The translations under genes were made by a program, and so were the position numbers. From NCBI GenBank assembly GCA_044892505.1, contig CM097882.1, positions 499,162,001 to 499,226,000 on the forward strand: DNA of 64,000 nucleotides. The letters run 5' to 3'. Position 1 is the first letter of the stretch, and each line of letters begins with the position of its first letter. The stretch comes from Schmidtea nova (lineage: Eukaryota). The notes beneath the pieces are model-generated. The model ran no database searches and was not told the DNA's origin. It saw only the letters and a list, made by a program, of their open reading frames with translations. Positions 39,616 to 43,433 of this stretch are shown piece after piece.

Positions 39616-39987
39616 TTGGATTGGATTGCTTTAATAATCAATTGGGATAGTTCGTTATAACACTTTCTATATGTCCAAATATATCAAAAGTGTTGATCTT
39701 GAATGTTCTTATGAATTTTGGCTAAAAGTGTATCGAAAATGGAATTCTCATTGTCTTAACTATCCTTTCGCATTCGATGGTATTACGAAAACTCATTTGA
39801 TGAAAATTGAGTTTTCGTAATACCATCGAATGCGAAAGGATAGTTAAGACAATGAGAATTCCATTTTCGATACACTTTTAGCCAAAATTCATAAGAACAT
39901 TCAAGATCAACACTTTTGATATATTTGGACATATAGAAAGTGTTATAACGAACTATCCCAATTGATTATTAAAGCAATCCAATCCAA
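39616..39987. repeat. Perfect inverted repeat, 180-bp arms (39616-39795 / 39808-39987) with 12-nt spacer
   Basis: Arms compared block by block with no mismatch found. Confidence 0.95.
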
Positions 39988-42900
39988 TCCACCTTGATCC
40001 CTTCTAGCGGATCAATCGACCTGTTCATTTCTGGGGGTCCCACCTTCAGATTCCTAAATTTATTCTTCCACTTCGGTTTATATTTGTTTTTGTCTTTGAA
40101 CATTTCTTCGATCATTAATTCTCTTGTACTATCCTGGATACACCCCCTCCAACATATGGACATTTTTATTTCCAAATTTACTGTTGTCAATTTATCGCTA
40201 ATGCTGTTTATATTTTCCATTTCCACTGCTAACGTTTCTACAGTTTCCGCACAATTCTTTATTTTTTCTTCTAACCTTTTAATTTTACTTTTATACTCCA
40301 ATTCGCTCGCTTTTATTTTACTTTCAAGATCTTCTATCTTTGAATGAAGTTGTGTTACTAAATCCGACTTATCAACAAGAACTTCATTATCAACATTTGA
40401 ACCATGATCAACTTTGTCAAATGATTCCATTTTATTGCCACTAATTGCATCTTTACCTTCTATCGGAAGATAAGCTGACTGCTCACTACCTGTTTTCTCT
40501 GCAATTATAACTGGGCAATTTATAAGTTCAATCGTTTCTACTTTTTCACATTTTATACTGACATTTTTTATAACTTTTCCATTATCTTCTAGATTTGTTT
40601 CACTTTTATTAACTTTTCCTTCGTCCCTTTTATCAACATTAAAATTTTCAACTATTCCTTGCCTAATATTTTCACCATTAAAAGAGTTCTCTCCAATAAT
40701 TTCCTCAAAATTACAATTTTCTTCAATTTCGTTAATATTTTCCACAATTTTCTCATCGACAATGCAGTTTTCTTTAAAATTATTCTCATTTACTGCCCGC
40801 TCATTTTTCACTGACATTGTAGATTCAATTTCCGTCATTACTTCTTGCACTAATTCGTTTGAAGAAGTATTTATTCCATCCTCGCTTGCAATATCAACCG
40901 ACTCAGAGTTACCAACCATTTCACTAGACACACCACTATTCACTGCGCTATTCTCACCTCGACCTGAATTCAAATCACCATCACCAGTCCGAACCTCACC
41001 AAGAACTACTTCCTGAGCTTTAGGTGCAAAACTCTCGATACATTCCTCTTCACACTGTTTTCTTTGACAAGTCTCCATTAACGTGTTCACATTTTGTTTC
41101 CCACCTCTTAGTGCCGTTATTCGTTCTCCACCCTTACTCGCGTTTCGTTTTACATCATTGCAAGCGGTTGTAAAGTGTGAGTACCTCTTCCTGTCAACCT
41201 TTTCAGACGTCTTGAAGTTTCTCTGCCCGTCTTGCCAATTGAAATCCTTTTCCTGACCAAATCCATATAATATTTCATTTGTCGCTCGTATTAGTTCGGC
41301 TTCCCTTTGCACCCACTCCTTTAACCGTTTTACTGACTCCTCACTTTCATCTGTTGCTTGCTCTCTTTTCCATTGCATAAGTAGAGAAGCTGGCAATTTC
41401 TTTAACAATTGGTGCAATAGACAGCCTCTCTGTAGGTCCTCTTCTCTTCCAATTTCCTTAAACCGTACCTCCATGGATTCCAACAATCCAACGAAACTAT
41501 CCAAGTCTTTTATTTCTCCTTCGCGAACCGGCCGAAACTTGTCTACAGCTTCTAACATAATCAGGTAGCTACGTTCTTCACCTCCGTAACGCCTTTCCAA
41601 TTTCTCTTTCGCCATCTTGTAGCCTTCGGCGGTATAACCCAGTGGCTCTATCATTCTCAGAGGCTCACCTAACAAGTACTGCCTAAGATGCAGCATTTTA
41701 TCTTCGGCCGTTCCATCTACTTTATCTATTACCGTGTTGAAGGCCGCCTTCCAATTTTCAAACTCGACCACTTTCCCATCGAAAATCGGAATCTTAATTT
41801 TCTGCAACCGATTTAAACTCTTCTTTTCTCTTGGCGCTTCACCATTTGATGTTTTCGATCCCTCGCTCACAACACTTTGTTCTGTTCTTTTTTGCATTAT
41901 CTTATCTATCTCTTCTTTTTTTGTTTTCAGCTCACAGATATCTTTTTCCACTAATTCTTTCTCCTCCTTCTTGTTTAATTTGTCACACAGCTCGACAAGT
42001 CTTAGCCATTCGTCCAATGTATCCTCAAATTCTTTCTCATATAATACCAGTGTGTCCTTTATTTCCCCGACCATTTCTGCCAACAATAAGTTACGCGCTC
42101 GAGTTACTTTCCATTTTTTAGATCTCCGACGGGTCCATAAACTTTTGAACTCTTCCTCATCATTACCACCTCTTAAACGAAGAACAAGATGAAGAGTAGA
42201 TTCTTTTTGTATGTTGTAATCTGCCAAGATTCTTCCGCCTTCCAATTGTTTACCCGCAAATATCAATCTCTGTTGATCAGGTGGGATTCCCTCTTTGTCT
42301 TGTATTTTCGTTTTTACCTTTTCTATTGTGTCACTTGATTCAACTTCCAGGGTAATGGTTTTCCCTGTTAACGTTTTTACAAATATTTGCATTCCCCCTC
42401 CCAACCTCAAAACTAGACCGAGAGTTGATTCCTTGGTGGGAATAGTCGTATTTCGATTAATTAACTTACTGAAAACGCCGCCCAGAGTTTCAATACCCAA
42501 CGAAAGCGGTGTAACATCTAGCAATAATACATCAGTCACATACTCAGCAAGAACTCCTCCCTCTATTGCTGCACCCATTGCAACAGATTCATCTGGATTC
42601 ACACTCTTACTAGGGACTCTACCGAAAAGTTTCTGTACAGCTTCTCGAACTTTAGGCATTCTTGTCATCTCACCAACTAACAACACTTCTTTAATGCTCG
42701 ATGTTTTTACCTCTGCATCTTTAATAGCTTTTTCACAAGATTCAATTGCTCTCTTAATTAGGTGCTCCACTAATTGTTCTAACTTTGACCGTGTGAACCT
42801 TAAACTCAAATGTTTAGGTCCTGTATTATCCATTGTCAAATATGGAAGATTAATGTCCGTTTGAATCGCTGATGGCAGGTCAATTTTAGCCTTTTCAGCT

Positions 42901-43433
42901 GCTTCTCTAACTCTCTGTAAAGCCATAAGGACTTTATCAACATCAACGCCTTGATCACATTTAAATTCACAAAGAATACTTTGTAAGCGCATATTATCAA
43001 AGTCTTCCCCACATATTTTATTTTTTCCCATTTCAATTGTATCGCTGCCTGCAACTTCTAAAGTGATGGGTTTTCTCGTTAAAGTTTTTAAAGATATGCG
43101 CCTCCCCCTGGTCAGTTCATTCCCCAATTGAAAAGAATGCTGGGGCCCATAGCAGCATCTTTTCTGGTCCCTTAATGGACCCAACCCACCGCAAAACATG
43201 GCAAAGGGCAGAGGGGAAAATGCTTCATCCCAAATTACTTTCAAAATTTTACAACATTCAGAAAACTTACAACATTTACAGAAAACTTCAAATAAAAAAT
43301 CAAAAATATTACATTTAAATACCTTGTTCTGGCTGGATAGCCAGAACCATATTCCGAAAGATCCAGAGAGCACGTGGTCCCCCGATGGGAACCACGCTCT
43401 GCTACCAAAAATGTTTCCAACAGAACGCAACAT
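39969..43433 (-). CDS. Chimeric 1154-aa ORF: Ub fragment / mitochondrial Hsp70 fragment / Ub tail / full ubiquitin / BEL-Pao Gag-like / low-complexity coiled coil
   Basis: One open frame. Ub 1-30-like at 43014-43103; mtHsp70 GEDFD...NTTIPTK at 42432-43010; [13 protein letters not shown] at 42393-42431; ubiquitin at 42165-42392; DUF1759-like IKIPIFDG...WKAAF...KMLHLRQYL...[10 protein letters not shown] downstream. Confidence 0.85.
42165..42392 (-). other. Complete ubiquitin unit within the chimeric ORF
   Basis: [76 protein letters not shown]. Confidence 0.97.
42432..43010 (-). other. Mitochondrial Hsp70 (mortalin/DnaK-type) internal fragment within the chimeric ORF
   Basis: [43 protein letters not shown] and [21 protein letters not shown] are mtHsp70/DnaK signatures. 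Confidence 0.92.

Follow-up and report, generated by a model that had tools for sequence, protein, structure and literature searches.

The window considered here is a stretch of 64,000 nucleotides (nt) of the Schmidtea nova genome (assembly GCA_044892505.1, contig CM097882.1, positions 499,162,001 to 499,226,000), and its minus strand holds a single open frame at 39969-43460 that runs from stop to stop over 1163 amino acids (aa), with an ATG at 43433. Pfam matches lie at aa 146-347 (HSP70), 359-430 (ubiquitin) and 560-701 (DUF1759), and translation and Pfam thereby confirmed the proposal of an earlier sequence-only reading that the frame at 39969..43433 is open and joins these three domains. 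The locus is probably a dead copy, lacking pol, of a BEL/Pao retrotransposon clade with ubiquitin before Gag, in which the reading frame begins in host mRNA captured in the long terminal repeat (LTR) and Gag would be freed by deubiquitinases. The copy as such is ordinary; the finding is the system behind it. Its parts are as follows, with the comparisons that define them given in brackets.

39969..43433 (-): open frame of the window copy, composed of leader, ubiquitin remnant, reductase remnant, mitochondrial Hsp70 (mtHsp70) piece, ubiquitin tail, ubiquitin, Gag and acidic tail
43440..43506 (+): last 67 nt of the LTR (end ...GGAAACA), in opposite orientation to the internal region, folding back with 43412-43448 (inverted repeat, LTR comparison)
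43412..43448 (-): last 37 nt of the 5' LTR, holding the ATG at 43433 (inverted repeat, LTR comparison)
43390..43407 (-): primer-binding site, complementary to the 3' end of a host tRNA-Met, presumably of the initiator type; in-frame reading G-S-R-A-W
43372..43397 (-): stem-loop 3' of the primer site, kept in other families (five rows compared)
43140..43154 (-): palindrome GGGCCC motif, present in 6/6 elements compared and in another frame in one of them
43032..43100 (-): remnant of a decayed upstream ubiquitin, residues 2-24, full-length in another copy (copy comparison)
43011..43031 (-): seven-codon remnant (MGKNK) of a glutathione-reductase-like capture (copy comparison)
42432..43010 (-): captured middle part of the host mtHsp70, drifting among copies with the frame kept (Pfam, host comparison)
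42393..42431 (-): decayed ubiquitin tail of 13 residues (12 variants among 34 copies, LRLRGG in none)
42165..42392 (-): complete ubiquitin with LRLRGG end, identical to host polyubiquitin at 70/76 residues and almost saturated at synonymous sites (host comparison)
41181..42164 (-): BEL/Pao Gag, with a predicted three-helix N-domain and a capsid-like domain, DUF1759 (Pfam, structure model)
40014..41180 (-): acidic low-complexity tail with a coiled-coil-like end, common to the pol-less family whichever Gag is present
39992..40013 (-): 22-mer directly before the polypurine tract, 549 exact genome matches; the following G-run and LTR start are deleted in the window copy
39805..39987 (-): internal 3' LTR fragment that contributes the last codons and the stop (LTR comparison)
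39339..39810 (+): LTR piece in opposite orientation with the LTR start missing, making the left foldback (LTR comparison)

Structure and state of the window copy

Inverted repeats are present at both ends of the frame: the outer LTR pieces lie on the plus strand, the interior is flipped, and no intact upstream LTR is left in coding orientation. The ATG, which the earlier reading used, and the stop codon both sit in LTR pieces and are by-products of the rearranged ends; two foldback switches during copying or repair may have produced this arrangement. A miniature inverted-repeat transposable element at either end was considered and rejected, as the inverted arms are LTR pieces. Pfam detected no protease, reverse transcriptase, integrase or Pao peptidase region in the window copy or in its pol-less family, and the window Gag carries no zinc knuckle. 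The locus is therefore likely an internally inverted, pol-less BEL/Pao copy that is inactive or dead, because pol, the zinc knuckle and an upstream LTR in coding orientation are all missing.

The junctions within the frame are real and not an assembly artefact. Using the ubiquitin-Gag junction as genome query, 1,738 candidates were obtained, and all 40 that were scored match at 96-100%, the window included. Moreover, short-read contigs (four runs of one study, possibly from the assembled sample itself) cover the element, span the junction at 43031-43148 and bridge the right end to the flank. Their depth over the element exceeds that over the flank about a thousand-fold, which is not to be equated with copy number.

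The leader is composite. In another copy, E8, a full upstream ubiquitin is followed by a reductase-like piece and then by Hsp70; a 228-nt in-frame deletion of this form joins ubiquitin residues 2-24 to the remnant MGKNK, and a second deletion joins that remnant to Hsp70 in the window. The junction IPTK|ESTL is present as described beforehand, but the view that Hsp70 replaces residues ~31-63 of one ubiquitin repeat did not hold: the N-terminal piece represents residues 2-24 of a separate upstream ubiquitin joined by deletion, and a single capture event into one repeat was not supported. The copies were sampled from the first 64 listed places on one contig, with the exclusion of three tandem neighbours and one place already sampled, resulting in 60 copies. 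The leader type of the window is rare among them (1/60), and the long form of the reductase-like capture is found in 46/60; its name, glutathione-reductase-like, is our assumption from a motif, and a Pyr_redox_2 match was obtained in L113. The mitochondrial origin of the Hsp70 piece was borne out, with Dugesia japonica mortalin as best named match (84%) and 92.5% nt identity to the host gene in the same genome. All parts are intronless, as had been pointed out, yet for the Hsp70 and ubiquitin of the window this is uninformative as to capture from spliced mRNA, since the host mtHsp70 stretch and the three host polyubiquitin genes have no intron there.

The claim that a complete ubiquitin stands in frame with a BEL/Pao Gag-like protein is supported by the Pfam matches to ubiquitin and to DUF1759 (E 1.9e-11). 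The Gag structure model (pLDDT 81) had the PNMA2 capsid as top Foldseek match (probability 0.99 but E 0.02), and its comparison with the Copia capsid gave Z 8.9 and a root-mean-square deviation of 9.6 over 165 aligned residues. Searching the Gag sequence against solved structures gave no match, and a wide fold search with the model returned mostly generic helical bundles. Together, a capsid-like fold of Gag has modest support from the model.

A young family in an old ubiquitin-Gag clade

The 22-mer that closes the internal region on its 3' side has 549 exact matches in the genome (control: 0), and the window thus belongs to a family of at least 549 copies. The family is young: the mismatch in 42 LTR pairs has a median of 0.35% and a maximum of 2.7%, at LTR lengths of 543-1103 nt. 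Ten copies resolved in full measure 5.2-6.2 kb, share LTRs of the type TGTT...AACA (the start is altered in one), a primer site ~4 nt past the LTR and a polypurine tract, and two of them, E8 and E10, are flanked by target duplications of 5 bp and 6 bp. Family copies hence display the BEL/Pao hallmarks of paired TG...CA LTRs, short target duplication, primer site and polypurine tract; Penelope-type pseudo-LTRs are ruled out by the TG...CA ends, the primer site and the polypurine tract. The primer site matches the 3' end of the host tRNA-Met(CAT), which we take to be of the initiator type from its features. The GGGCCC palindrome is likely an RNA signal for dimerisation or packaging.

Insertion flanks of the 35 copies with both ends defined carry AAT/ATT repeats on both sides in 18, on one side in 10 and on neither in 7. 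A strong preference for AAT/ATT (and AT) microsatellites was seen in pol-less and Gag-Pol families alike (L094-L153, L078-L093), and head-to-tail element arrays with 4.6-5.6 kb spacing were noted at G000:C3:86.55 Mb, C1:156.70 Mb and C2:303.08 Mb. The pol-less chassis (L105, L122, L137 and others) combines a constant acidic tail with differing cargo from different Gag-Pol families, i.e., Gag alone, Gag-knuckle-protease, or Gag up to the start of the reverse transcriptase. The genome also holds a tandem array of tRNA-Met(CAT), the primer of the clade, from 510.09 Mb on G000:C1 (L176) with a 458-bp period, and the 3' 19-mer of this array has 1,034 genome matches.

The ubiquitin-Gag joint is not confined to the pol-less family. 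From 675 Pao-peptidase candidates 150 were scored, and 16 Gag-Pol elements were chosen among these for their long frames; of the BEL/Pao families of this genome, the sample covers those to which these elements belong. Ubiquitin precedes Gag in 16/16 of them, representing four families, and in 17/17 from five families if L171 is included, an element with full pol that has the LTR end and the Hsp70 leader in common with the window family. In these relatives protease, reverse transcriptase, Pao peptidase, integrase and DUF5641 follow in one frame, and 16/16 have their first Met ahead of the primer site. Pol is also present in L078-L093. Gag-Pol elements of the L171 type are likely the helpers of the pol-less copies. 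Of the 60 sampled copies, 52 contain the joint, and GG is intact in 50 of these (one stop, one frameshift). The same leader is followed by any of four Gag types, and the change from one type to another falls in or near ubiquitin. The suggestion to search for further ubiquitin-Gag copies was thus answered by hundreds in the genome in addition to the Gag-Pol elements.

Four proteins from outside this assembly (P0002, P0127, P0128, P0143) have ubiquitin before Gag as well, and P0128 reads GSRA, as the primer site does; relatives without ubiquitin are P0004-6 and P0129-31. In a 17-row tree of reverse transcriptase-RNase H all 9 rows with ubiquitin group as one clade with support 98/97, where P0003 is labelled by its GG tail alone, three outgroup rows are long-branched and none of the rows is a named Flow reference. 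The ubiquitin-Gag joint is old and clade-wide. The 17 Gag-Pol ubiquitins are identical to that of the host at 33-63 of 76 positions; L73, G75 and G76 are invariant, unlike I44 and K48, and Met1 is Ile in 12/17, three families being without Met1. An L-x-G-G end with a non-proline next residue is found in 50/52 copies with the joint and in 17/17 Gag-Pol elements. GG is followed by N, S, M, Q or G, depending on the family, and never by Pro, so that neither a role for Asn in an N-degron, as suggested beforehand for the window, nor any other conserved N-degron fits the clade. Furthermore, Gag starts after GG at about the same register as the N-terminus of a ubiquitin-free relative.

Selection was analysed as the ratio of nonsynonymous to synonymous nucleotide diversity (piN/piS) among 34 copies of the main Gag type that have all segments, other Gag types and partial copies being excluded. 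Ubiquitin has a ratio of 0.12 [0.05-0.28], an interval that is optimistic as copies share ancestry and recombine, and the two Gag parts have 0.17 and 0.14; the mtHsp70 piece (0.99), the reductase piece (1.00) and the leader (1.07) drift. Variants common to at least three copies show the same split. Moreover, the tail of the downstream ubiquitin is unchanged in 33/34 copies, in contrast to the upstream 13-residue tail with its 12 forms. Selection hence acts on ubiquitin and not on Hsp70 among the copies, and it acts on the transposing family, not on the window locus; the idea that selection retained this particular locus was not upheld, the copy lacking a 5' LTR in coding orientation. Compared with all 10 repeats of three host polyubiquitin loci (ubiquitin-ribosomal fusion genes were set aside), the element ubiquitin differs at a synonymous proportion (pS) of 0.66-0.87 and a nonsynonymous proportion (pN) of about 0.05, and appears old and constrained. 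The Hsp70 piece differs from the host gene at pS 0.115-0.127 and pN 0.062, and its capture appears younger than ubiquitin.

Captured host mRNA and the proposed release of Gag

The coding frame of intact copies has its beginning within the 5' LTR and continues across the primer site. In 25/31 copies the LTR contains the first in-frame Met, which in 8/31 is the start codon of a captured calmodulin. The distance from primer site to Gag is a multiple of three in 36/44 copies, and the frame is kept in 8/8 of the lengths shared by at least two copies as compared to 7/15 single lengths, revealing a bias for frame. Host pieces in LTR and leader comprise HECT, CCT1, the membrane region of an ABC transporter, a pyridine-nucleotide reductase and calmodulin; in the Gag-Pol families prenyltransferase, Vps35, ThiF (E1), Hsp90 and PSD13 were found. 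Identity to the host is 96-98% for calmodulin, 99-100% for VPS35 and 95% for CCT1, for which selection could be followed in just one copy and was dropped. The VPS35 capture differs from the host at 2 of 383 nt and fuses precisely those exons that AG and GT flank in the host gene, and in the calmodulin capture the exon with 5' untranslated region (UTR) and ATG is joined exactly to exon 2 and supplies its own start codon. These two pieces derive from spliced mRNA, because the introns of the donors are missing at exact exon joins. The template switching onto mRNA proposed for the window is supported by these joins, and microsimilarity at the Hsp70|ubiquitin joint (as raw counts, 6/9 nt in register, and short shared words at the two deletions) may be a further trace of it; as one event, it did not stand.

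Taken together, the following mechanism is likely. Transcription would initiate in the LTR 5' of the captured block, ribosomes would start at an upstream and often host-derived AUG, and translation would run through primer site and leader. Host deubiquitinases would then cut after the ubiquitin GG, giving Gag or Gag-Pol a fixed N-terminus. That deubiquitinases free Gag from an interchangeable leader is likely from the conserved tail, and the earlier view of ubiquitin as a Gag processing signal gains from the purifying selection and from the retention of L73, G75 and G76 at 33-63/76 identity. As this cut would make Gag independent of the preceding sequence, captures in the leader would be harmless while the frame is kept. 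Reverse transcriptase would switch onto co-packaged host mRNA in LTR and leader, and if it did so during synthesis of the 5' end, the capture would end up in both LTRs. A capture out of frame would cost the copy its Gag and be purged, in-frame captures would drift, and pol-less copies would be mobilised by Gag-Pol relatives. A more extended reading, about as likely as not, holds that this is a clade without a start codon of Gag's own, which uses borrowed 5' UTRs and AUGs, a read-through primer site and ubiquitin-freed Gag, with LTR and leader as a cargo bay open to ever new host transcripts and Gag cassettes swapped at ubiquitin.

Several observations weigh against this mechanism. Family copies are related and recombine, so that their counts are not independent. 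Met1 of ubiquitin is kept in 32/34 copies of the main Gag type, where an internal start at this codon is possible; 6/31 copies have an upstream break and no open frame back to the LTR, and 8/44 are out of frame. Finally, the ratio of Hsp70 to its host gene is near 0.5, which tells somewhat against pure neutrality and leaves room for some earlier constraint on the piece, although synonymous change on the host side lowers the ratio too.

Among the alternatives, a compatible one is that the captures are a selected trait in which housekeeping sequence shields the element from silencing by PIWI-interacting RNAs (piRNAs) or diversifies the LTR. It differs in what drives capture, ubiquitin cleavage being what makes capture affordable, and we regard it as possible but doubtful. 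The many different recent captures and the wide span of LTR lengths fit it, as do the targeting of LTR elements by planarian PIWI reported in PMC8532177 and the gene capture described in PMC13534243 as anti-silencing in Drosophila telomeric elements. However, there is no piRNA-pathway gene among the named captures, and these are housekeeping genes, as chance co-packaging of abundant mRNAs would predict.

Alternatively, ubiquitin might stay on Gag as a domain that recruits ubiquitin-binding factors or the endosomal sorting complexes required for transport (ESCRT), tunes turnover or helps folding. This would agree with constraint across the whole fold beyond the tail and with the host-like ubiquitin (70/76) of the main family, but GG and L73 never change and I44, K48 and Met1 do, which makes it unlikely. 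Cellular deubiquitinases cleave the standard LRLRGG before a non-proline residue. For this sequence context a viral case is described in PMC8310069.

That captured fragments such as Hsp70, HECT and CCT1 work as proteins, e.g., as decoys in protein quality control, is suggested by the origin of several captures from proteostasis genes and by the Hsp70 ratio to the host; it is nevertheless very unlikely, as piN/piS is 0.99-1.07 among copies and the pieces are partial domains, cut by in-frame deletions and differing between families. A protein role of the Hsp70 piece in the window copy likewise finds no support, its value being 0.99. Retention of ubiquitin through recopying from host ubiquitin mRNA, or as a crossover site with cleavage unneeded, would account for the switch of four Gag types in or near ubiquitin and for the second, decayed upstream ubiquitin in some copies. 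It is highly improbable, given that the synonymous distance to the 10 host repeats argues against recent recopying from these three loci and that diverged ubiquitins retain L-x-G-G. That the locus is a domesticated host gene or a chimera of the assembly, for which the long open frame among broken elements and the foldbacks at both ends might speak, is scarcely credible in view of hundreds of near-identical copies, the missing intact upstream LTR in coding orientation, and short-read contigs bridging the right end and one inner junction; the frame of the window copy is open because the element is young.

Neighbouring features and known systems

Elsewhere in the window, a rhabdovirus-type nucleocapsid gene fragment lies at 49245-49730 (+) in a GC-richer stretch (Pfam E 3.3e-24) and is likely, by this match, an endogenous viral element; beside it are frames without explanation at 50949-52048. 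A 520-codon uninterrupted frame at 4959-6521 (+) has an N-terminal RING finger and may be a host gene or element cargo, and 15597-16184 (-) is a diverged C-terminal fragment of tubulin (Pfam E 4.4e-09). Related coiled-coil-like frames at 22173-22820, 26319-26663, 51698-52048 and 59783-60325 (+) represent a repeated element, and the two of them that were scanned had no Pfam match. Tc1-like and hAT-like transposase pieces and two other Gag-like frames occupy 36981-37475, 46421-47925, 54831-55976, 61021-61500 and 63349-64000.

If the proposed mechanism is true, it represents a mode of Gag expression new for LTR elements, one that depends on translation starts taken from the host and on a host protease. 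Hundreds of dated copies would then form a natural experiment on which host mRNAs enter particles, with frame and not protein function being kept, and on whether host-like LTRs escape piRNAs. There is also a hazard for annotation, since planarian genomes would contain numerous spurious "paralogs" of Hsp70, ubiquitin, HECT, CCT1 and calmodulin, with possible cross-reaction in RNA interference and read mapping.

Each ingredient has precedent. The literature search, with supplements and Repbase-type libraries outside its scope, returned no ubiquitin-Gag BEL/Pao element, and a prior database note may exist; the combination as clade-wide Gag expression was not found in the literature covered, including PMC11410931, PMC13465017 and PMC12471100. 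The elements resemble BEL/Pao (Belpaoviridae) in their TG...CA LTRs, primer site, polypurine tract, duplications of 5-6 bp and DUF1759 Gag, and are unlike them in the ubiquitin before Gag, the frame from the LTR across the primer site and LTRs that consist largely of captured host coding sequence. Cellular N-terminal ubiquitin fusions are Ub-eL40, Ub-eS31 and polyubiquitin, from which ubiquitin is removed after GG. There ubiquitin gives the start codon, whereas here a variable leader precedes it and Met1 is absent in three families.

Planarian members of BEL/Pao were placed in the Flow superfamily in PMC3118150, the main text of which does not contain the word "ubiquitin". The Burro giant Gypsy elements of planarians carry host-like domains, including a ubiquitin/SUMO-like one, in the polyprotein, but, as presented in PMC6431247, these are Gypsy elements of 30 kb (5-9 kb here) with N-terminal Gag and an internal ubiquitin-like domain. 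LTR-mediated retroposition in animals proceeds by microsimilarity-driven switches onto host mRNA and, in the account of PMC5131818, likewise gives multi-gene chimeras that are sense-strand and often in frame, with one BEL example. In that account captures replace internal open reading frames in rare copies, whereas here they lie in LTR and leader of high-copy elements that keep Gag or Gag-Pol.

A parallel is found in cytopathic pestiviruses with captured ubiquitin, the bovine viral diarrhoea virus (BVDV) strains Osloss, CP1 and CP Rit (PMC8310069). In both systems host mRNA is captured in frame and a fragment of another host protein may precede ubiquitin; in the pestiviruses of that source cellular hydrolases release a viral protein with authentic N-terminus, a cleavage that would operate here by analogy. 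The pestivirus case, as given there, is a sporadic recombinant of an RNA virus inside a polyprotein, whereas here ubiquitin at the N-terminus of Gag is old and fixed in a retrotransposon clade, with ubiquitins down to 43% identity, and would, if the proposed mechanism is true, form a natural counterpart to the pestivirus capture that has persisted over deep time.

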